The notes beneath the pieces are model-generated. The model was not told the origin of the DNA, ran no database searches, and worked only from the letters and a program-made list of their open reading frames with translations. Position numbers and translations under genes: made by a program. Source: Escherichia coli (GTDB lineage Bacteria; Pseudomonadota; Gammaproteobacteria; Enterobacterales; Enterobacteriaceae). Taken from it: DNA of 64,000 bases. The stretch lies in NCBI RefSeq assembly GCF_003334315.1, contig NZ_QOWR01000004.1; one strand, written 5' to 3'. Below are positions 28,615 through 45,235 of the stretch, one piece after another (the first letter of the stretch is position 1; every line of letters starts with the position of its first letter).

Positions 28615-28929
28615 TCATGTTATTTTCGCCACATCATAATCCTGGGCTTGCTGAAGAATAATTGAAATGATATTAGTAATTCCACTGCCTTTGGTAGAGG
28701 AAAGTGCTAAATAATAATCAATTGTTAAATTATTGTGCATTTCACTACTGGAACTGTAATCAGAAAAGATAGACATGCTTAGCCAATCTCTATTTGATTG
28801 AATTGAAAGATGTTTGTTAAGGCATGGATGCAAGCTATAGATTCTGATACGGTCAATAAAAGAGAATTGCTTAACAATTTTGCAAAATGTATTGGCGAGT
28901 AAGAACCGCATTTGGTACTTTCCGGGCAA
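28615..28929 (-). CDS. unassigned hypothetical ORF in AT-rich ychE-oppA spacer (possibly non-coding)
   Basis: 104 codons from TTG (98 from first ATG); no recognisable motif, weak SD-like GGAA; AT-rich context. Confidence 0.15.
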   Translation of the reverse strand: MPGKYQMRFLLANTFCKIVKQFSFIDRIRIYSLHPCLNKHLSIQSNRDWLSMSIFSDYSSSSEMHNNLTIDYYLALSSTKGSGITNIISIILQQAQDYDVAKIT

Positions 28930-34781: not shown

Positions 34782-34790
34782 AAACAATAA

Positions 34791-34815
34791 GGGCTGACAG
34801 TTGTCAGCCCTTTTT
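34791..34815. terminator. bidirectional terminator between oppF and yciU
   Basis: GGGCTGACAGTTGTCAGCCC hairpin flanked by A-run and T-run. Confidence 0.75.
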
Positions 34816-34833
34816 CACGCTAAAAGCGATTAT

Positions 34834-36658
<1,825 letters not shown>

Positions 36659-36800
36659 AGATTAGAAATCCTTTTGAAAGCGCATTGTTATGAGTTTACG
36701 CATATGGATTCATCTGGCAAATAAAAACGCGGGAAAAGCACTGGTCAGCGTCGGGGGTGGGGGTATAATGACCATTCTGTTATTGCATAGAGTAGTTAAC

Positions 36801-36974
36801 ATGAAGCGGAGTAGAACGGAAGTGGGGCGCTGGCGCATGCAGCGTCAGGCTAGCCGACGTAAATCGCGTTGGCTTGAGGGGCAATCGCGCCGAAATATGC
36901 GTATCCACAGCATCAGGAAGTGCATTCTAAACAAACAGCGTAACTCGTTATTGTTTGCGATCTACAATATCTAA
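36801..36974 (+). CDS. yciY: small basic protein YciY
   Basis: 57 codons from ATG 36801 (MKRSRTEVGRWRMQRQASRRKSRWLEGQSRR...); part of longer track ORF 36690..36974. Confidence 0.6.
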   Translation: MKRSRTEVGRWRMQRQASRRKSRWLEGQSRRNMRIHSIRKCILNKQRNSLLFAIYNI

Positions 36975-36980
36975 ATGTAC

Positions 36981-37001
36981 TGGGCACCATTGCGGTGCCC
37001 A
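36981..37001. terminator. hairpin between yciY and kch (TGGGCACCATTGCGGTGCCCA)
   Basis: 7-bp GC-rich stem between convergent stops. Confidence 0.5.
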
Positions 37002-37028
37002 ATAAGTTTACTCTTCCGTCTTTAAACT

Positions 37029-38282
37029 CTATTTTTGCGCCGATTCTTTACTGTCAGCTTTCGTTTCTAGTTCATCGTTATCGCTGAAAATACCATGACC
37101 TGAGTTCAACAACATTGAAACGAGCATATCATTATTAATCTCTTCACCATTTAAAACTCGCGCCAGAATTTCGCTGCCAAACAGTTGCGGTGAGAGAATG
37201 ATATCCGGATGTACCATCTTAATCTTATTCAGGTTTTTGCTATCACTGACGGCGAGAACTGTTTTGACATCACTGCTCATATCTTTTGCCGAGAGTACAA
37301 CAAACGCGTTATCTGCATCGTTATCACTCAGCGCCAGAATGGCCCGGCAACGATCGATTCCCGCTTTCTTTAATACAGAACTGTCATTACTGTCACCGGG
37401 GATAACATCAGCATTATCGCCTAAGCGTTGCTCAAGTTGCTTGATATCATCTTCAGGCAAGTTGCTGATAACCGTTACGTTTTGTCCGCGTTGATTCAGT
37501 TGCAGGATCGTATTGATGGCGAGAATCGAATGTCCGCAAACAATAAAATGATCTTTACGATGCATTGTATGATTGTTTCCTTTTACAAGTTTGTTGAATC
37601 CCCCGCGGATAAGCGGACCAAAAATTGAGGTCATAGATGTGGCAAAAACGGTAATGCCGGAAATAATGACCGAAATAGTGAACAATCGTGCTGATTCAGA
37701 AACAGGGACAATATCGCCATAGCCGACGGTTGACATGGTTTCTATCGAAAAATAGAACGCGGTCATCAAACTTTCTATTCGCGGATTAAAACCTTCGCTT
37801 AAATAAAGCGCACCGTAGGTTGAGTAAAACAGTAATGTCGTGAAACTAATAAATGCAAAAATTGTCCCGGCTGCGGCGCTACTGTGGGAGAAGTCTTTGC
37901 GCAGTATCAGCAAAAACACCAGCGTAAAAATGCAAAATCCAATACTAAATTTCAGCCAGGGATAAAAATGCAGGGTGTAAATTAGCGCTATCAACAACAA
38001 AATGATACTGATTGCCCATGCGAGCTTTGCCCGGAACAGTAAGCCAATGGAGTTCAGGACAAGAAAGACGCCGAGCATAAAGAGTGGGGCGTTTGCCAGC
38101 AAGGAGAGATCCAACTCTGAAAATGCTTTGATATGGAAAATATCAAGCAAATTGACCGACATACCATAGATTGTTTTAAAAATAAGCAATCCATTTAAAA
38201 AGACGGCCAGCGCGAGAATGTCGTGCCGAAGGGTCACCCATAAATTTGTTGCTGTTTGTTTGAATGTAGCCCAGTGACTCAC
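37029..38282 (-). CDS. kch: voltage-gated K+ channel homologue Kch
   Basis: K+ selectivity filter TVGYGD plus C-terminal RCK/TrkA-like domain; 417-aa form from GTG 38282 (track ORF from GTG 38300). Confidence 0.93.
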   Translation of the reverse strand: MSHWATFKQTATNLWVTLRHDILALAVFLNGLLIFKTIYGMSVNLLDIFHIKAFSELDLSLLANAPLFMLGVFLVLNSIGLLFRAKLAWAISIILLLIALIYTLHFYPWLKFSIGFCIFTLVFLLILRKDFSHSSAAAGTIFAFISFTTLLFYSTYGALYLSEGFNPRIESLMTAFYFSIETMSTVGYGDIVPVSESARLFTISVIISGITVFATSMTSIFGPLIRGGFNKLVKGNNHTMHRKDHFIVCGHSILAINTILQLNQRGQNVTVISNLPEDDIKQLEQRLGDNADVIPGDSNDSSVLKKAGIDRCRAILALSDNDADNAFVVLSAKDMSSDVKTVLAVSDSKNLNKIKMVHPDIILSPQLFGSEILARVLNGEEINNDMLVSMLLNSGHGIFSDNDELETKADSKESAQK

Positions 38283-38581
38283 TGATACCTCTGTAACCAC
38301 AATTTTGTTTAATTATCTTAGCGTGCACATTTTCTGAACATACATGCAGCGCGTGAATGTGTTAAACAATAGTAGATGACTTTATCCGCAGTAATCAAAG
38401 GATTTGAGCGAGCAACTGTACCTCAGGAAAGGTCATTTTTCCTGAATATGCTCACATCATATAAAGAAATACAGATAAAGTTATTATCTGCTTGTGGTGG
38501 TGAATGCACTGACCGGCTATAAGGAAAGGCCAAACAAGAACACGGTTGCAAAAACCGTGCCCTTAAATATTGAATCTCTAT

Positions 38582-38878
38582 TCAGAACACTTTCTTAAAT
38601 GGTTTCACTGAAACGTGTTCATAGACTCCTGCCGCTACGTACGGGTCAGCATCGGCCCAGGCCTGAGCTGCTTCCAGCGATTCAAATTCAGCAATAACGG
38701 TTGAGCCAGTAAATCCCGCAGCCCCTGGATCGTTACTGTCTACCGCTGGCATTGGACCAGCTGTCAACAAACGACCTTCATCATGCAGTAACTGTAAACG
38801 TGCTAAATGTGCCGGACGAACGGAAAGGCGTTTTTCGAGGCTATCAGCTTTGTCTTGAGCGTAAATAACATACAACAC
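38582..38878 (-). CDS. yciI: YciI-like (Dabb-fold) protein
   Basis: 98 codons from GTG 38878 (.[28 protein letters not shown]...); track ORF 5'-extended. Confidence 0.85.
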
Positions 38879-39035
38879 GGGCACAACTCCTTGTTCGGGA
38901 AAGTTGTAAAGTACGTTATTTGAAAGGGCGAAGATCTGCAACGGAAAGATGATGTCTTTGTTAAGGCCATGCATAAAGTAAGGGTAATTACGCCAAAAAT
39001 GACATTTTCACTGATCCTGATCGTCTTGCCTTATT

Positions 39036-39054
39036 GAATATGATTGCTATTTGC
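39036..39054 (+). promoter_or_regulatory. Fur-box-like sequence in tonB promoter
   Basis: GAATATGATTGCTATTTGC resembles Fur consensus GATAATGATAATCATTATC; position approximate. Confidence 0.45.
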
Positions 39055-39101
39055 ATTTAAAATCGAGACCTGGTTTTTCTACTGAAATGATTATGACTTC
39101 A

Positions 39102-39821
39102 ATGACCCTTGATTTACCTCGCCGCTTCCCCTGGCCGACGTTACTTTCGGTCTGCATTCATGGTGCTGTTGTGGCGGGTCTGCTCTATACCTCGGTACAT
39201 CAGGTTATTGAACTACCTGCGCCTGCGCAGCCGATTTCTGTCACGATGGTTACGCCTGCTGATCTCGAACCGCCACAAGCCGTTCAGCCGCCACCGGAGC
39301 CGGTGGTAGAGCCAGAACCGGAACCTGAGCCGATCCCCGAACCGCCAAAAGAAGCACCGGTGGTCATTGAAAAGCCGAAGCCGAAACCTAAGCCAAAACC
39401 GAAGCCGGTGAAAAAGGTACAGGAGCAGCCAAAACGCGATGTCAAACCCGTAGAGTCGCGTCCGGCATCACCGTTTGAAAATACGGCACCGGCACGCCCG
39501 ACATCAAGTACAGCAACGGCTGCAACCAGCAAGCCGGTTACCAGTGTGGCTTCAGGACCACGCGCATTAAGCCGTAATCAGCCGCAGTATCCGGCACGAG
39601 CACAGGCATTGCGCATTGAAGGGCAGGTTAAAGTTAAATTTGACGTCACGCCGGATGGTCGCGTGGATAACGTACAAATCCTCTCAGCCAAGCCTGCGAA
39701 CATGTTTGAGCGTGAGGTGAAAAATGCGATGCGCAGATGGCGTTATGAGCCGGGTAAGCCAGGCAGTGGGATTGTGGTGAATATCCTGTTTAAAATTAAC
39801 GGCACCACCGAAATTCAGTAA
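39102..39821 (+). CDS. tonB: energy transducer TonB
   Basis: 239 codons from ATG 39102 (MTLDLPRRFPWPTLLSV...), Pro-rich (EP)n/(KP)n spacer; track ORF 5'-extended. Confidence 0.96.
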   Translation: MTLDLPRRFPWPTLLSVCIHGAVVAGLLYTSVHQVIELPAPAQPISVTMVTPADLEPPQAVQPPPEPVVEPEPEPEPIPEPPKEAPVVIEKPKPKPKPKPKPVKKVQEQPKRDVKPVESRPASPFENTAPARPTSSTATAATSKPVTSVASGPRALSRNQPQYPARAQALRIEGQVKVKFDVTPDGRVDNVQILSAKPANMFEREVKNAMRRWRYEPGKPGSGIVVNILFKINGTTEIQ

Positions 39822-39828
39822 GCAGAAA

Positions 39829-39858
39829 GTCAAAAGCCTCCGATCGGAGGCTTTTGAC
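39829..39858. terminator. bidirectional terminator between tonB and yciA
   Basis: perfect palindrome GTCAAAAGCCTCCGATCGGAGGCTTTTGAC. Confidence 0.85.
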
Positions 39859-39860
39859 TA

Positions 39861-40259
39861 TTACTCAACAGGTAAGGCGCGAGGTTTTCCTTCAGGATCA
39901 ACCGCGACATACTTAAATAATGCTTCTGTCGCTTTATACCGTTGCCCGATTGGTTCAGACGCTACTTTTTTCACCCACACTTCAATATTAATGCTGACCG
40001 ATGTCGTCCCTTTCTGGACACAGCGTGCATAGCAGCACACCACATCGCCGACCGCAACCGGCCGTAAGAAAGTCATTCCTTCAACCCGCACAGTCACTAC
40101 GCGACCGTGGGCAATTTCTTTTGCCAGAATAGCGCCGCCAATATCCATTTGTGACATTAACCAACCACCAAAGATGTCACCATTGGCATTGGTATCGGCG
40201 GGCATGGCTAAAGTACGTAAAACAAGATCGCCCTGAGGGACGTTATGTGTTGTAGACAT
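39861..40259 (-). CDS. yciA: acyl-CoA thioesterase YciA (hotdog fold)
   Basis: 132-aa ORF. Confidence 0.93.
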   Translation of the reverse strand: MSTTHNVPQGDLVLRTLAMPADTNANGDIFGGWLMSQMDIGGAILAKEIAHGRVVTVRVEGMTFLRPVAVGDVVCCYARCVQKGTTSVSINIEVWVKKVASEPIGQRYKATEALFKYVAVDPEGKPRALPVE

Positions 40260-40363
40260 GGTAAAACCGACTTAAAAGGAAAATCACAGGCGCGATGCTA
40301 CTATGATTTTCCTGAGGAGAACAGAGGAGATACAGCGCCAGCCCCGAAGGACTGGCAGTCTGG

Positions 40364-40903
40364 TTAGGATTTATCTTCCTGCGGCATGTGGCGGTAGATA
40401 TAGATACCGCTTAACAATGTGAAGATTAAGGTAAGGGCGGTCAGGCCAAAGACTTTAAAGTTGACCCAAATATTTTGCGGCAGCCAGAATGCGATGTAGA
40501 TGTTTGCCAGACCGCAAAGGATAAAGAAAACAGCCCAGGCCAGATTCAGCTTCGACCATACCGGTTGCGGCAGCGTGAGTTCTTTACCCAGCATCCGCTG
40601 AATTAGCGGCTTTTTCATCACCCATTGGCTGACTAACAGGGCTCCCGCAAATAGAGCATAAATGACTGTAACCTTCCATTTAATAAACTCATCATTGTGG
40701 AAGAACAGCGTCAAGCCACCGAAGACGACCACCAGAACAAAAGTGATCAGGGCCATCTTCTCAACCTTACGAAAGCGAACCCAGCTATAGATAAGCACAA
40801 TCGCCGTGGCGACGATCAGCGCCGCAGTAGCTGCATAGATGTCATAAATCTTGTAAAACGCGAAAAAGACAACCAGCGGTAAAAAATCAAGAAACTGCTT
40901 CAT
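40364..40903 (-). CDS. yciB: inner membrane protein YciB (intracellular septation protein A family)
   Basis: 179-aa hydrophobic ORF. Confidence 0.93.
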
Positions 40904-40932
40904 TTTACGATTCCGTAATCAAATGCTTAAGG

Positions 40933-41676
40933 TTATTGGCGAATCAACATATACAGGCGGAACAGATAGATGAGCAATATGGCTGAAATCAGGTTGCTCA
41001 AGGTGTTCGCCAGTACGGCACCAATTTCCGGGGTTAATGCGGCAAAAGAAGAGGCAAAAAGCAGCAACAGTGTTTTTGCCAGCAACCAGCTCAGTACTGC
41101 GGGTGCCACCAGACGCATATTCGCCCAAGTCAGCCGCATACTGCTACGCATCGAGGCAAAAATGCCCATTTTGTCCTGTACCAGCATCACCGGTGCCAGG
41201 GCCAGCAAAATGGCCATGATAATTCCCGGAACGACCACCAGCATGATGCCAATCTGTACTAAAAGGGTAGTCAGAAAAATCAGAATAAATAACTTGGGCA
41301 ATATCGGCGCACTGGCACCAATAGCTCGCAGCGCACTGACTCTCTGACCCGCAGACACCAGCTGGATAATTAATATTACGCCTCCGGCGAGAATGGCGTT
41401 ACCGATCAATCCTGAAAAAGTGGAAGCCGCTGAAGCTTGCAGCAAAATTTGTTGCTGTTCCGGTGACATATTCTGAACCAGGTCGAACAACCCACTACTG
41501 CCGCTAACGGGTACGCCGTCATTGAGCTGCGCAAGCTGTGCATCACTGGGTGAGAAAACATGCCCTAACACCACTGTGATAAACGCACATAGCAACGATA
41601 CCAACAGAATGGTCATAAATTGATTACGGAAGAAATTTCCGGTGTCACGGTATACGGACTGCGCCGTGATAGACAT
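40933..41676 (-). CDS. yciC: UPF0259 membrane protein YciC
   Basis: 247-aa hydrophobic ORF. Confidence 0.93.
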
Positions 41677-42032
41677 GCACTCTCCTTGAGTTTTATGCAG
41701 GTGTTAATTAGCGGGCAATTGTACCCTGGTTAAGCCTCGGGTGGCAGCATCAGGTCTTGTATGGAAAAGCATATCTTTGTAAAGCGGAGGTAATTGCTGG
41801 CCTTCAGGCATGGGCAAATCGCGGCAAGTGGCGACCGAGTTAATATTTGCGTAGCGAAAATATTTAAAAATTGATTTAAATCACATTAACCAGGATTCTC
41901 AATGCAACTTCTAAATTAATCCAGATCAATAAAGGGTGAATTATCATATGTAATGTGATCTATGTAGGATCATTTGTTACTCCAATGTAGGTATATTCGT
42001 CACGTTTTTATAACCATAACGACGGAGCGGAT

Positions 42033-42671
42033 ATGAAAAAGTTAACAGTGGCGGCTTTGGCAGTAACAACTCTTCTCTCTGGCAGTGCCTTTGCGCATGA
42101 AGCAGGCGAATTTTTTATGCGTGCAGGTTCTGCAACCGTACGTCCAACAGAAGGTGCTGGTGGTACGTTAGGAAGTCTGGGTGGATTCAGCGTGACCAAT
42201 AACACGCAACTGGGCCTTACGTTTACTTATATGGCGACCGACAACATTGGTGTGGAATTACTGGCAGCGACGCCGTTCCGCCATAAAATCGGCACCCGGG
42301 CGACCGGCGATATTGCAACCGTTCATCATCTGCCACCAACACTGATGGCGCAGTGGTATTTTGGTGATGCCAGCAGCAAATTCCGTCCTTACGTTGGGGC
42401 AGGTATTAACTACACCACCTTCTTTGATAATGGATTTAACGATCATGGCAAAGAGGCAGGGCTTTCCGATCTCAGTCTGAAAGATTCCTGGGGAGCTGCC
42501 GGGCAGGTGGGGGTTGATTATCTGATTAACCGTGACTGGTTGGTTAACATGTCAGTGTGGTACATGGATATCGATACCACCGCCAATTATAAGCTGGGCG
42601 GTGCACAGCAACACGATAGCGTACGCCTCGATCCGTGGGTGTTTATGTTCTCAGCAGGATATCGTTTTTAA
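42033..42671 (+). CDS. ompW: outer membrane protein W
   Basis: 212-aa ORF with signal peptide MKKLTVAALAVTTLLSGSAFA and C-terminal ..FSAGYRF. Confidence 0.96.
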   Translation: MKKLTVAALAVTTLLSGSAFAHEAGEFFMRAGSATVRPTEGAGGTLGSLGGFSVTNNTQLGLTFTYMATDNIGVELLAATPFRHKIGTRATGDIATVHHLPPTLMAQWYFGDASSKFRPYVGAGINYTTFFDNGFNDHGKEAGLSDLSLKDSWGAAGQVGVDYLINRDWLVNMSVWYMDIDTTANYKLGGAQQHDSVRLDPWVFMFSAGYRF

Positions 42672-42685
42672 TTCCGCACAAAAAC

Positions 42686-42706
42686 GACCCCGTAATATAC
42701 GGGGTC
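42686..42706. terminator. hairpin between ompW and yciE (GACCCCGTAATATACGGGGTC)
   Basis: perfect 7-bp stem between convergent stops. Confidence 0.65.
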
Positions 42707-42730
42707 AATAAGGACATGGTATAAAGGGTA

Positions 42731-43237
42731 TTATTTCTTCGCTTCTACGCCATCAGTTTCAGAGCGAATTAAAAATTTCTCAGTTGTTTGCGGAATATTC
42801 TGAATCAGCCAGTCGGCCATTTGCTTTTCCTCATTTAAAATCGCTTCGATGGTTGGAATTGAAGCTGTATCACCGGCATTTTTTGCTGCTGCTAATAGTG
42901 AGGTGTAACAGGCGATTTCAAATTGCTCGAAGACATATCCGCTAATAGAGCCTTTGACTATTTCATCAGAAGGGAATATACCACCGATTGACTGCCCAAG
43001 CGCAGCCATTTTACTCATGGAATCTTTAATGACTGAACGTGAAATGTCATTACGATCAAGAATAGTTTCCAGTTGAACAATCTGGTTTTTGGTTTCACTA
43101 AGATGTTGTTCAATACGAGCGCGTAGTTCAGGATAATTATCTATACGGCTGGCCATGGATTCAAGCATAGATTCGGCTTGCTTTTCCATTGCGTGGGCGT
43201 CACGTAACCAGTCATGATAATGTTCAATACGATTCAT
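42731..43237 (-). CDS. yciE: ferritin-like DUF892 protein YciE
   Basis: 168-aa ORF. Confidence 0.92.
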   Translation of the reverse strand: MNRIEHYHDWLRDAHAMEKQAESMLESMASRIDNYPELRARIEQHLSETKNQIVQLETILDRNDISRSVIKDSMSKMAALGQSIGGIFPSDEIVKGSISGYVFEQFEIACYTSLLAAAKNAGDTASIPTIEAILNEEKQMADWLIQNIPQTTEKFLIRSETDGVEAKK

Positions 43238-43282
43238 GAAAATGTCCTCTTTATAAAATGACTAAAAGTTAAAATTCATATT

Positions 43283-43783
43283 TCAGGCTTTATTTTCGGC
43301 TTTCTTATTTACGTTATTAATGGCCAGATCAGTCAGTTTGATGTCGGTGGCCTTTTCTTCTTCCAGGGTTTCTTTCAGAAGCTTCGCTGCTTTACGGTAA
43401 CCTAATTGTTCAGCCAGCGTCGCTAATGTCCCGTAACTGGCAATCTCATAATGCTCGACTTTCTGTGCTGCGGCAATCAGTGCGGCATCACGCACTTCGT
43501 TTTTCTCGGTACTTTCGATGACCTCATTAGCTTCTTCAATAAGACCTTCCATTGCCACACATTTCATGCGCTTAATTTTCAGGTTCGATTCGGACTCCAC
43601 AACTTGATCAATACGTTCAATCTGTCCATGAGTTTCCTCGAGGTGCGCATGAAAAGCCTGACTTAATTTTTCATTTGATGTTGCTCTTGCGAGTTTTGCC
43701 AGTGCCCGGGTTAATTGTTTTTCTGCGCTGTAGGTATCTGAAAGCAGGTGAATAAATACATCTTCAATGGTCTTCATATTCAT
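43283..43783 (-). CDS. yciF: ferritin-like DUF892 protein YciF
   Basis: 166 codons from ATG 43783 (MNMKTIEDVFIHLLSDTYSAEKQ...); track ORF 5'-extended. Confidence 0.92.
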   Translation of the reverse strand: MNMKTIEDVFIHLLSDTYSAEKQLTRALAKLARATSNEKLSQAFHAHLEETHGQIERIDQVVESESNLKIKRMKCVAMEGLIEEANEVIESTEKNEVRDAALIAAAQKVEHYEIASYGTLATLAEQLGYRKAAKLLKETLEEEKATDIKLTDLAINNVNKKAENKA

Positions 43784-43868
43784 ATTTTTCTCCAGTGAAA
43801 TCACTGCGAGCCATACGGCCCGCAGATGCAATTATCTTTATCAGCTGATATTAATAATTAACGGTGAA

Positions 43869-44048
43869 TCAGGATTTGCCTGATTTATTACCACCGCTTT
43901 GTTGACCGCCTTTTTTACCCGCTTCAGATGCGCGTTGCGGATCATTTTTAAAATTACCGCCGCTATGCTGACCGCCTTTACGGCCTGCGTCGGATGCCTT
44001 CTCACGGTCTTCGGCGAAATTTCCTGAACCACCACGATGTTCGGCCAT
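43869..44048 (-). CDS. yciG: KGG-repeat stress-induced small protein YciG
   Basis: 59 codons from ATG 44048 (MAEHRGGSGNFAEDREKASDAGRKGGQHSGGNFKNDPQRASEAGKKGGQQSGGNKSGKS). Confidence 0.85.
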   Translation of the reverse strand: MAEHRGGSGNFAEDREKASDAGRKGGQHSGGNFKNDPQRASEAGKKGGQQSGGNKSGKS

Positions 44049-44389
44049 GTTATTTCTCCCGTTGCGTTGCATTGTTTCATTAATATGAGTGTTGTGTGTC
44101 GACACTCATTAAAATTAGTCGCTAATGAGAATTAGTCAAATTAAGCGCAACGAGAAGATAGAGGGAAAATATATTTTGAGGAACATTCTGGATATATTAA
44201 CAATTACCTGAGGAATAAGTGACTTAGAGAAAATTATTGATTTTACTGGTGTTATGTTGCGGGATTAATTTGTTTGATTATATTACTGTTGGGCGGAAAA
44301 ATGACGTAAGTTGACGTTCGACCGGGGTAAGCGAAACGGTAAAAAGATAAATATTAAATGAATTTAGGATTTTTCCGGCTTCATTAAAG

Positions 44390-44421
44390 AAAGTTAAAAT
44401 GCCGCCAGCGGAACTGGCGGC
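44390..44421 (-). terminator. trp operon terminator (trp t)
   Basis: minus strand GCCGCCAGTTCCGCTGGCGGC followed by ATTTTAACTTT, just downstream of trpA stop. Confidence 0.85.
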
Positions 44422-44428
44422 TGTGGGA

Positions 44429-45235
44429 TTAACTGCGCGTCGCCGCTTTCATCGGTTGTACAAAAACTTTCAGTGCCGCCAGCATTTTCTCTGGCTCATT
44501 AATATGTTGCTCGATGATTTTAACAATGGCCGAACCAGAAATCGCGCCCGCAGCTCCTGCATCAATCGCTGCTTTTACCTGATCCGGGGCGGAAATACCA
44601 AATCCCTGCAATGGAGGTGCAGCGTTGTACTCTTTCAGCTTCGCAACCAGATGATTGAGGGGTAACGCGGCGCGGTTTTCTGCGCCGGTCACGCCTGCTC
44701 GTGACAGCAAATAGGTGTAACCACGACCGTAAGAGGCTATCTGGCGCAGCAGGTCGTCATCGGCATTTGGCGGGCAGATGAAGATAGGTGCGACATTATG
44801 ACGCAACGCGGCCTGGCGGAAGGGCGCGGACTCTTCAACTGGCACATCGGCAACCAGCACCGAATCGACGCCGACTTTTTCGCACTGGGCATAAAACTCA
44901 TCAATGCCTTTGTTAAACACCAGATTGGCATACATCAACAGGCCAATGGGAATGGTCGGGTGTTTCTGGCGAATCAGTGCCAGCATTTCAAAACATTGTG
45001 CCGGAGTCACACCTGCCGCAAAGGCGCGCAGAGTGGCGTTTTGAATCGTCGGGCCATCCGCCAGTGGGTCGGAGAAGGGGATACCTAACTCCAGCGCGTC
45101 AGCACCGGCTTCAATTAGCGTATCGATAATTTTCAATGACTGCTCAATGCCCGGATCACCGAGCGTGACGAAAGGAACGAATGCGCCTTCTTTGCGCTCC
45201 TTCAACTGGGCAAACAGAGATTCGTAGCGTTCCAT
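44429..45235 (-). CDS. trpA: tryptophan synthase alpha
   Basis: 268-aa [40 protein letters not shown]... Confidence 0.97.

Follow-up and report, generated by a model that had tools for sequence, protein, structure and literature searches.

The low GC content of kch in Escherichia coli and its probable origin as an old single-gene insertion

The RCK-gated potassium channel gene kch of Escherichia coli very probably reached its present position as an old single-gene insertion from a Plesiomonas-like gene pool and has been inherited vertically since then, with a low GC content that is mainly its own; published ChIP-chip data place H-NS over its DNA, without measurable silencing under the conditions tested. 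Kch is, to our knowledge, the sole canonical K+ channel of E. coli, and current work cites it as underlying membrane-potential signalling in biofilms of Gram-negative bacteria. The gene itself is already known and is otherwise an ordinary feature of a well-annotated genome; an old insertion is likewise an ordinary kind of event, and the evolutionary detail added here is modest. Coordinates are those of the window, by which we mean the whole stretch of 64,000 nucleotides of E. coli DNA that was analysed.

The kch gene and the source of its AT-richness

Positions 37029 to 38282 of the window coincide exactly with the kch coding sequence, which starts with GTG, encodes 417 amino acids on the minus strand and is 100% identical to annotated E. 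coli kch, a K+ channel gene already well annotated.

37029 to 38282, minus strand: kch coding sequence; six-transmembrane K+ channel with TVGYGD filter and C-terminal RCK/TrkA_N domain; GC 0.423

The translation contains the K+ selectivity filter T-V-G-Y-G-D in its pore loop (ETMSTVGYGDIVP), followed by the cytoplasmic domain: Pfam Ion_trans_2 covers residues 149–221 (E 6e-16) and TrkA_N, the RCK domain, residues 246–365 (E 1e-19), while residues 241–393 match the RCK domain structure PDB 1ID1, a 'putative potassium channel protein', with E 1e-92. NCBIfam NF007828 matches over the full length with 646.7 bits (curated equivalog cut-off 425), and by these signatures the gene encodes a Kch-type RCK-gated K+ channel (NF007828 / PRK10537). 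According to PMC9898762, no K+ transport by the channel has been demonstrated; Kch-dependent hyperpolarisation in biofilms has been reported (PMC11928028). The earlier note held the physiological role of the channel to be still unclear, which is partly outdated given the role in biofilm membrane-potential dynamics described in that 2025 eLife paper (PMC11928028).

It had also judged kch, by eye, to be more AT-rich than its neighbours, and this is confirmed by the GC contents of 0.423 for kch, 0.517 for cls and 0.547 for tonB. Among the 49 window genes of at least 300 nt (mean GC 0.503, sd 0.038; whole-window GC 0.496), kch lies about 8 GC points below the mean (z = -2.1), and just two genes, yciE (0.406) and tdk (0.422), are lower; 4.85% of all 1254-bp sliding windows have a GC content equal to or below that of kch. 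The dip is present in sliding windows but is broader than the coding sequence, since 500-bp windows do not exceed 0.46 anywhere between about 36750 and 39250, and it takes in the kch-yciI spacer (0.378), yciI (GC3 0.371) and the yciI-tonB spacer (0.377). Similar low-GC patches occur elsewhere in the window, at hns-tdk, ychE-oppA, yciEFG and cysB-acnA, thus kch is not unique in this respect.

Codon usage gives a different picture: unlike overall GC, it lies within the range of the flanking genes. GC3 of kch is 0.452 (z -0.9, eighth lowest of the 49 genes; GC1 0.466, GC2 0.351), the Karlin codon-bias distance from the other window genes is 0.344 (z +0.18), Nc is 52.8, and the dinucleotide signature delta* is 54, compared to 67.5 +/- 19 for windows of the same size. 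The codon adaptation index, calculated with w values after Sharp & Li 1987, is low (0.218, z -1.2, second lowest in the window), as expected for a weakly expressed gene; GC3, Karlin distance and dinucleotides are typical. Of the compositional marks of horizontal genes, then, kch displays atypical GC (gene 0.423, z -2.1; inserted segment 0.413 against flanks of ~0.50), but neither atypical codon usage nor an atypical dinucleotide signature by Karlin B, GC3 or delta*. Since both of the latter are typical of E. coli, composition provides no independent support for transfer.

Most of the deficit lies in the protein. The GC content expected from the amino acids of Kch with the codon usage of the window is 0.453, so that ~60% of the shortfall (about 5 of the 8 missing points) is attributable to amino-acid make-up: Kch has many Phe, Ile, Asn, Lys and Leu residues and few Gly, Ala, Arg and Pro, with a FYMINK/GARP ratio of 1.72 (z +2.8). 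The remaining 3 points stem from a codon bias that is weak, as is usual in poorly expressed genes. An offset of about -6 GC points relative to local DNA accompanies kch in every Enterobacterales host sampled, including P. shigelloides, E. fergusonii and Plesiomonas sp., and the DNA around P. shigelloides kch is ~49% GC, about equal to that around E. coli kch. With the same offset in a host of similar local GC, the low GC of kch is not the unameliorated imprint of a low-GC donor; it is mainly intrinsic to the gene, and AT-richness itself is a weak indicator of horizontal acquisition. As a caution on method, here a visible GC dip marks a true old insertion and yet is mostly protein composition, with codon and dinucleotide tests for transfer both negative.

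The yciY-yciI junction

Comparison with related genera delimits the segment that carries kch, and the features in and around it are as follows.

36801 to 36974, plus strand: yciY (annotation, NCBIfam yciY_fam), ancestral left neighbour of the insertion site, directly beside yciI in Salmonella and Raoultella
36982 to 37000, plus strand: conserved hairpin GGGCACC-ATTGC-GGTGCCC, where yciY and kch converge
37002 to 38580, unstranded: insert, lacking in Salmonella, C. koseri and Raoultella; 1579 bp, GC 0.413, 2-kb flanks 0.506 and 0.496
38337 to 38365, minus strand: sigma70 'constitutive promoter' TTAACA-17-TATGTT, given to kch by genomic SELEX (PMC3946193 Table 2)
38369 to 38398, minus strand: promoter-like block TTGATT-N18-TACTAT, 87–116 nt upstream of the kch start
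38547 to 38563, minus strand: motif for sigma54 binding, AGGGCACGGTTTTTGCA, on the right border of the insert, overlapping a hairpin just downstream of yciI
38582 to 38878, minus strand: yciI, ancestral right neighbour of the insertion site, outside the insert; GC3 0.371

Four genomes of Enterobacteriaceae were sampled at this junction. In Salmonella, C. koseri and Raoultella the gene order is cls, yciY, yciI, tonB (yciY was not among the called genes of C. koseri), kch is absent and the junction gap is about 20–66 bp, and these related genera thus retain an intact empty site; in Enterobacter the junction is occupied by three unrelated genes. Homology by blastn to the empty-site genomes ends at ~37001 and picks up again at ~38580–38592, giving boundaries accurate to about +/-10–20 nt, and the segment between them consists of the kch coding sequence flanked by 27 nt downstream (3') and about 299 nt upstream (5'). 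The hairpin beside yciY is also found between yciY and yciI in Salmonella and C. koseri, and therefore marks the left edge of the insert. The whole low-GC tract from 36750 to 39250 was considered as the insert and rejected, since yciI and the yciI-tonB spacer are ancestral by homology. Some of the sampled genomes that lack kch (Salmonella, C. koseri, Raoultella, Enterobacter) have a different channel gene 2 kb away.

No mobility gene, IS or tRNA is annotated at the borders of the insert. The only border repeat is an imperfect one of 8 nt, in which the 3' arm of the left hairpin, CGGTGCCC, recurs at the right edge as CCGTGCCC (38555–38562); this pair could represent a target duplication. A terminator scan gave no match, the scanner requiring a T-run, yet the hairpin on the yciY side is evident in the sequence; the hairpin at the right edge was rejected as a terminator only, since it is also a published sigma54 site. 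A search of plasmids found no close Kch homologue on true plasmids, the 99% matches being pieces of E. coli chromosome filed as plasmids. One E. coli contig has a phage integrase directly upstream of kch, at the usual place of yciI, and an exact look-up of YciY matched only kch-containing contexts resembling E. coli; among TonB clusters, no E. fergusonii TonB was identified.

The upstream part of the insert appears to carry the regulatory sequence of the gene. In alignments and a blastn patch, the TTGATT-N18-TACTAT block is kept in E. coli, E. albertii, E. whittamii, P. shigelloides and E. fergusonii despite unrelated contexts, and it is probably the native kch promoter, moved together with the gene. 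A sigma70 ChIP peak at MG1655 1308410 (PMC3688515 Table S2) corresponds to window position 38399. The conversion uses an MG1655-to-window offset of 1270011, which is anchored on the sigma54 motif and fits most of the authors' peak labels that were checked, two of them (chaA/chaB and narX/narK) mapping about 100–300 nt outside their spacers. The sigma54 motif AGGGCACGGTTTTTGCA, known as site OS13 in PMC4591121 and from RpoN SELEX in PMC8743547, is absent from E. albertii and E. whittamii. This 1.58-kb indel of kch with its own promoter in the yciY-yciI junction corresponds to the low-GC tract.

Relatives of Kch and descent within Escherichia

Phylogenetic distribution, which the earlier note proposed to follow, places kch outside the sampled Salmonella, C. 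koseri, Raoultella and Enterobacter genomes and identifies P. shigelloides Kch as the nearest relative. MAGs and Logan contigs supplied the Plesiomonas sp. sequences; an exact peptide-pattern scan of contigs yielded 16 kch loci but missed the P. shigelloides and E. fergusonii copies, which came from a protein search with cluster look-up. In Plesiomonas kch adjoins hcr-hcp-lysO, and amino-acid identity between E. coli and P. shigelloides is 83–84% for Kch, compared to 72% for Hcp, about 58% for LysO, 57% for YbjD and 44% for Hcr. The corresponding dN is 0.106 for Kch, 0.205 for Hcp and 0.36 for LysO. For Kch, dN is 0.16–0.17 when P. shigelloides is compared with Plesiomonas sp., greater than between E. 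coli and P. shigelloides, whereas Hcp and LysO have the opposite order of distances, by about 2-fold. In a neighbour-joining tree of 402 columns, Kch of P. shigelloides and E. fergusonii groups with that of the E. coli clade at 100% bootstrap, to the exclusion of other Plesiomonas, and Plesiomonas sp. joins at 93%. The identities, the reversed ratios and this clade together place the gene tree and distances of kch in conflict with the species tree. The paper collection searched contained no relevant report on kch with Plesiomonas or with horizontal transfer. The suggestion of an older horizontal acquisition is supported by the empty junction, the incongruence and the clade with 100% bootstrap, but not by the compositional argument from which it started.

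Could kch instead be an ancestral gamma-proteobacterial gene, inherited vertically, lost independently in most Enterobacteriaceae and relocated in some, with a low GC that reflects protein composition and low expression only? Homologues occur in Plesiomonas, Aeromonas, Shewanella and Vibrio or other Vibrionaceae, in that order of similarity, with identity dropping roughly with phylogenetic distance; this loosely matches the species tree, and therefore deep vertical descent with many losses is compatible with the similarity ranks alone. The GC deficit is also mostly amino-acid driven, in a gene with typical codon usage and dinucleotide signature. However, several precise deletions would be needed, each sparing the hairpin, in Salmonella, C. 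koseri and Raoultella; the three closest lineages hold kch in three different chromosomal contexts; and the Kch dN of 0.106 is half that of Hcp and less than a third that of LysO, although within Escherichia Kch evolves 4–8 times faster than most of its neighbours. Vertical descent on this scale is already disfavoured, and we regard it as unlikely.

Within Escherichia, E. albertii, E. whittamii and the cryptic clades carry kch in syntenic position, and 5421 of 5426 complete E. coli genomes have the gene. Its dS of 0.97 is within the range of its neighbours (0.6–1.1) and its dN/dS is about 0.03–0.04; since the insertion, kch is a vertically inherited core gene under purifying selection. These data bear directly on whether the segment might be a recent, unameliorated import, an islet still showing the GC of a low-GC donor. 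Such an origin would suit a GC content 8 points under the gene mean, the sharp bounds of the insert, and a junction that together with adjacent DNA acts as an insertion hot spot (the Enterobacter cargo, and the integrase in one E. coli contig). It is nevertheless extremely improbable: the core-gene distribution and a dS equal to that of neighbouring genes in practice refute it, and synteny extends to E. albertii as well as the cryptic clades. At synonymous sites, moreover, divergence from the closest foreign copy is saturated (pS 0.76), codon usage and dinucleotide signature are native-like, and the closest relative resides in DNA of ~49% GC with the same offset.

From these comparisons we infer in which direction and when the gene was transferred, and how often it was acquired. 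The insertion would have entered the ancestor shared by E. coli, E. albertii and the cryptic Escherichia clades, from a gene pool whose closest living representative is P. shigelloides, and would then have passed vertically as a core gene under purifying selection. E. fergusonii has a second, divergent kch copy at another chromosomal locus, between the cytochrome bd genes and pgsA-uvrC. Kch is only 82% identical between Plesiomonas sp. contigs that are 99.5% identical at hcp; kch alleles have thus been exchanged among Plesiomonas contigs, and this weakens the argument on the direction of transfer.

Tentatively, and with rather less confidence than in the insertion itself, we suggest that kch may be a promoter-plus-gene cassette without a mobility gene, repeatedly exchanged between Plesiomonas and Escherichia, with two entries into Escherichia (at yciY-yciI, and next to pgsA in E. 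fergusonii) and with alleles still being replaced within Plesiomonas. If so, this would suggest selection on channel variants, and the model channel of Gram-negative 'electrical signalling' would be a lineage-specific accessory gene and not a general enterobacterial trait. In any case kch appears to be a lineage-specific acquisition, absent from the Salmonella, C. koseri, Raoultella and Enterobacter genomes sampled, which limits the generalisation of results obtained with Kch and may help to explain the long lack of a strong phenotype.

H-NS at kch and comparison with known systems

Occupancy of kch by H-NS was taken from Myers 2013 Table S3 and expression from Srinivasan 2015. Two anaerobic ChIP-chip peaks lie over or beside the gene.

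36505 to 37110, unstranded: anaerobic H-NS ChIP-chip peak (PMC3688515 Table S3, MG1655 1306516–1307121) spanning yciY together with the 5' end of cls and the 3' end of kch
37232 to 38232, unstranded: anaerobic H-NS ChIP-chip peak (PMC3688515 Table S3) inside the kch coding sequence

In the aerobic list a single region of 9.7 kb (window 35344–45023) spans the entire kch locus (PMC3688515 Table S3). Peaks thus cover 86% of the coding sequence in anaerobic and 100% in aerobic conditions, in permissive lists that cover 22% and 49% of the window respectively. In genomic SELEX the promoter spacer binds sigma70 holoenzyme and carries no H-NS mark (PMC3946193). No significant derepression of kch was found in an hns stpA mutant in the one growth condition studied: kch (b1250) has a logFC of -0.41 (p 0.13, sheet hs-wt), a 1.3-fold higher RNA level (PMC4288151). 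In the same data yciE and yciF have logFC of -6.4 and -8.2, and yciEFG rises 80- to 290-fold in hns stpA (PMC4288151). The logCPM of kch, 6.6, is that of yciI, so kch is not silent. The proposal that H-NS targets kch finds some support in these permissive ChIP-chip lists, but it is not matched by a SELEX mark at the promoter spacer or by significant derepression.

It may still be asked whether kch is silenced by H-NS as xenogeneic DNA, its AT-richness being kept or tolerated because H-NS lowers expression and suppresses intragenic promoters. The peaks that tile the coding sequence, the low CAI of 0.218 and the horizontal acquisition of the gene are all in keeping with this. Weighed against them are the 1.3-fold change in kch RNA (p 0.13) beside 80- to 290-fold for yciEFG, a promoter spacer occupied by sigma70 holoenzyme with no H-NS mark in SELEX, the in vivo sigma70 ChIP peak at the kch promoter, a logCPM of 6.6 equal to that of yciI, and peak lists that span 22–49% of the window; silencing is, on balance, an unlikely explanation. 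In published ChIP-chip data H-NS appears to occupy the AT-rich DNA of kch, without measurable silencing under the conditions tested.

The window gene does not differ from E. coli Kch (b1250; NF007828/PRK10537; PDB 1ID1), being the reference gene itself. With RCK-gated prokaryotic K+ channels of the MthK / GsuK type, Kch has in common a pore domain followed by a cytoplasmic RCK domain (phmmer against MthK: E about 1e-18, residues 158–378), but its N-terminal part has six transmembrane segments where those channels have two transmembrane helices. Like classical genomic islands and islets, the kch insert displays sharp presence or absence at a junction that takes other cargo elsewhere; unlike them, as they are tRNA-linked and bear integrases, it consists of one gene and its promoter, with no integrase, IS, tRNA or clear direct repeats. 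Finally, yciEFG, which is H-NS-bound, horizontally acquired and AT-rich, shares with kch its AT-richness, its horizontal acquisition and its position under H-NS ChIP-chip peaks. However, yciEFG shifts by 6–8 log2 units in hns stpA whereas kch is not derepressed, and in contrast to this example of xenogeneic silencing kch is a species-wide core gene under purifying selection with native-like codon usage.

Base composition of kch

The window is a piece of the E. coli chromosome with the gene order chaA, nar, hns, adhE, opp, yciU, cls, yciY, kch, yciI and tonB, followed by yciABC, ompW, yciEFG, trp, topA, cysB and acnA. The Kch translation contains a TVGYGD filter and two Pfam domains:

37029–38282, minus strand: kch coding sequence, exact match to the studied interval (417 aa, GTG start)
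Kch residues 149–221: Ion_trans_2 (Pfam)
Kch residues 246–365: TrkA_N (Pfam)

Kch scores 646.7 bits against NCBIfam NF007828 (cut-off 425), and the structure of its RCK domain has been solved (1ID1). Upstream of the annotated start the frame stays open for six more codons (38283–38300), to a second GTG at 38300. A conserved GAGG ahead of the annotated start (GTG at 38282), together with conservation of the first codons in Plesiomonas, supports that start.

An earlier note had judged by eye that kch is more AT-rich than cls and tonB. This is confirmed: GC is 0.423 in kch compared to 0.517 and 0.547 (window, 0.496), the third lowest value among the 49 window genes of at least 300 nt (z −2.1; mean 0.503, sd 0.038). 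Only 4.85% of sliding windows of kch size are this low in GC; four comparably AT-rich patches occur elsewhere in the window (hns–tdk, ychE–oppA, yciEFG and cysB–acnA), and the dip around kch also takes in the flanking spacers and yciI. The window minimum (GC 0.333) belongs to a hypothetical 98-aa ORF in the ychE–oppA spacer (28615–28911, minus strand), which is only 50–60% conserved in other Escherichia species.

The note had held that normal GC and codon usage would count against its reading; GC lies outside the range of the other genes, but codon usage lies within it (GC3 z −0.9; Karlin codon-bias distance z +0.18; Nc 52.8), as does the dinucleotide signature (delta* 54 vs 67.5 ± 19). The codon adaptation index (0.218, using the w table of Sharp & Li 1987) is the second lowest in the window, which fits weak expression. 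By codon position, GC is 0.466, 0.351 and 0.452. If Kch were encoded with synonymous codons at the frequencies pooled from the rest of the window genes, GC would be 0.453; amino-acid composition thus accounts for ~5 of the 8 missing GC points, and synonymous choice for ~3. The FYMINK/GARP ratio of Kch is 1.72 (z +2.8), and AT-richness is equal in the membrane and RCK halves of the gene. Most of the AT-richness of kch is inherent in the composition of the protein, with a further contribution from weak codon bias.

The probable insertion site between yciY and yciI

kch is core in E. coli, with 5421 of 5426 complete genomes carrying at least 80% of the gene at 95–100% identity. The order yciI-kch-yciY-cls is shared by E. 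albertii, E. whittamii and cryptic-clade representatives. Against E. albertii, dS of kch is similar to that of its neighbours (0.97 vs 0.6–1.1); its dN/dS is 0.03–0.04, although its dN is 4–8 times as high as in cls, yciI or the opp genes. kch is missing from Salmonella enterica and Raoultella terrigena, where the order is cls-yciY-yciI-tonB, and from Citrobacter koseri, where it is cls-yciI-tonB (yciY is not called there, though the DNA is homologous); just ~20–66 bp occupy the kch position. In Enterobacter asburiae this junction holds three unrelated genes, and the yciY-to-tonB stretch looks like a hot spot for repeated integration.

Several further rearrangements were observed. The Enterobacter cargo (locus L031, 3275–5108) encodes an unknown protein, LysE and CAT. 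In one E. coli-like contig a phage integrase lies immediately upstream of kch in the usual place of yciI, and a second kch-bearing contig has a resolvase beyond yciI (entries L034 5487–6680 and L035 6427–6975). In E. coli S1-CAM-01-A (H14, NZ_CP145714.1) the kch match is in two pieces and coincides with IS903B, which apparently interrupts the gene, and IS1A lies within the cls–tonB region of E. coli C3728 (H1, NZ_CP196347.1). E. coli can evidently do without kch on occasion.

Alignments of E. coli with the empty-site genomes stop at ~37001 and restart at ~38580, at the yciI stop codon, giving an insert of 1579 bp with a GC of 0.413 (flanks ~0.50). Two features mark its edges:

36982–37000: hairpin abutting the left edge of the insert; in Salmonella and C. 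koseri it separates yciY from yciI
38547–38563, minus strand: sigma54 binding site AGGGCACGGTTTTTGCA (OS13 of Bonocora 2015, PMC4591121; RpoN SELEX, PMC8743547)

The 3' arm of the hairpin has an imperfect second copy at the right edge, which hints at a duplication without proving one. The sigma54 site lies at the right edge, on the hairpin just downstream of yciI; window coordinates put it ~265–280 nt upstream of the kch start (254 in PMC4591121). The motif looks specific to E. coli, as it is absent at the equivalent position in E. albertii and E. whittamii. A promoter-like TTGATT-N18-TA(C/G)TAT upstream of kch is conserved across three unrelated contexts, and a published sigma70 ChIP peak (window 38399) falls on this block (PMC3688515).

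A second K+ channel gene lies between oppF and yciU in Salmonella, Raoultella and Enterobacter (L029 2419–3255, L032 2369–3217 and L031 1–845, respectively). Its 278–289-aa product has a TVGYGD filter and Ion_trans and Ion_trans_2 domains, lacks an RCK domain, and shares 34% identity with Kch across the pore. At this position E. coli (window 34782–34833) and C. koseri show just ~52–63 bp of spacer. Two unrelated channel genes are therefore present or absent within 3 kb across the Enterobacteriaceae.

H-NS at kch

The earlier note also raised H-NS targeting. Published ChIP-chip peaks (Myers et al. 2013, PMC3688515 Table S3), at MG1655 1306516–1307121 and 1307243–1308243 (anaerobic) and 1305355–1315034 (aerobic), were placed on the window using an offset of 1270011 anchored on the sigma54 motif; this matches most of the peak labels checked, chaA/chaB and narX/narK falling ~100–300 nt outside their spacers.

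36505–37110: H-NS ChIP-chip peak, anaerobic (PMC3688515)
37232–38232: H-NS ChIP-chip peak, anaerobic (PMC3688515)
35344–45023: H-NS ChIP-chip region, aerobic (PMC3688515)

These cover 86% (anaerobic) and 100% (aerobic) of the kch coding sequence, although both peak lists are permissive and take in 22% and 49% of the window, respectively. Mean GC is 0.46 in H-NS-bound DNA and 0.51–0.53 in unbound DNA. The kch/yciI spacer contains a constitutive sigma70 promoter (TTAACA-17-TATGTT, 38337–38365) and carries no H-NS mark, while the ychE>oppA and topA>cysB spacers are marked (Shimada et al. 2014, PMC3946193). In hns stpA RNA-seq, where negative values denote more RNA in the mutant, kch shows no measurable repression by H-NS (logFC −0.41, p 0.13, logCPM 6.6; Srinivasan et al. 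2015, PMC4288151), unlike the very strongly derepressed yciE (−6.4) and yciF (−8.2). Occupancy of kch by H-NS is thus plausible, but the RNA-seq gives no support for functional silencing in that condition.

Nearby, yciEFG (42731–44048) is AT-rich like kch (yciE and yciF GC 0.41–0.43), and ompW (42033–42671) changes by log2 4.2 in hns stpA in the opposite direction to yciE and yciF (PMC4288151). E. coli OmpW is only 83–88% identical to that of E. whittamii, Escherichia sp. E1V33 and E. albertii (L004, L006, L007), with dN of 0.07–0.08, while neighbouring proteins are ~94–100% identical; this suggests recombination or diversifying selection.

Relatives and origin of kch

No Salmonella, Citrobacter, Klebsiella or Enterobacter appeared among the organism-named entries of the best 120 protein matches to Kch. 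Plesiomonas shigelloides matches at 83% and E. fergusonii at 81%, followed by Plesiomonas sp. MAGs (70–71%), Aeromonas schubertii (67%), Shewanella (65–66%) and Vibrionaceae (52–61%). In a neighbour-joining tree (300 bootstraps) Kch of the E. coli clade, P. shigelloides and E. fergusonii join at 100%, with Plesiomonas sp. next (93%). kch adjoins hcr-hcp-lysO-ybjD in every Plesiomonas contig, and these neighbours provide a calibration: between E. coli and P. shigelloides, Kch is 84% identical compared to 72% for Hcp, 57.5% for LysO, 57% for YbjD and 44% for Hcr. Kch dN is 0.106 for this pair and 0.16–0.17 between P. shigelloides and Plesiomonas sp., an order that is reversed for Hcp (0.205 vs 0.10) and LysO (0.36 vs 0.16). 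Together with the empty sites and the conserved promoter block, these comparisons indicate that promoter and kch were probably acquired horizontally as a cassette, from a Plesiomonas-like pool, before the split of E. coli and E. albertii; the event is old, since synonymous divergence between E. coli and P. shigelloides has reached saturation. In E. fergusonii, kch is flanked by cytochrome bd genes and pgsA-uvrC-uvrY-sdiA, reflecting either a separate acquisition or the relocation of a copy.

The two Plesiomonas sp. contigs L022 (6001–7314) and L025 (6001–7356) are 99.5% identical in Hcp and 98.7% in LysO but only 82% in Kch, with saturated dS for kch and differing DNA beyond its other side, which looks like allele replacement.

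The note had read AT-richness as a hint of old horizontal acquisition. Its interpretation is partly supported: acquisition itself is favoured by the empty sites and the Plesiomonas affinity, but AT-richness is a weak pointer to it, being mostly a matter of protein composition. GC of kch compared to its ±10-kb flanks is 0.423 vs 0.485 in E. coli, 0.431 vs 0.497 in E. fergusonii, 0.426 vs 0.492 in P. shigelloides and 0.33–0.35 vs 0.40–0.42 in Plesiomonas sp., an offset of 0.04–0.07 in every Enterobacterales host compared; in Aeromonas it reaches 0.606 against a background of 0.626. First and second codon positions hold most of the deficit in each enteric host. The GC of kch therefore follows that of its host but stays below it by a constant margin, which the protein mainly determines. 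Local GC in the closest relative available for the donor lineage equals that in E. coli. A donor imprint is thus not the reason for the low GC of kch.

Neither the link to Plesiomonas nor the existence of two insertion sites in Escherichia was found in the literature searched; they constitute a modest addition, the gene being well known and the type of event ordinary.
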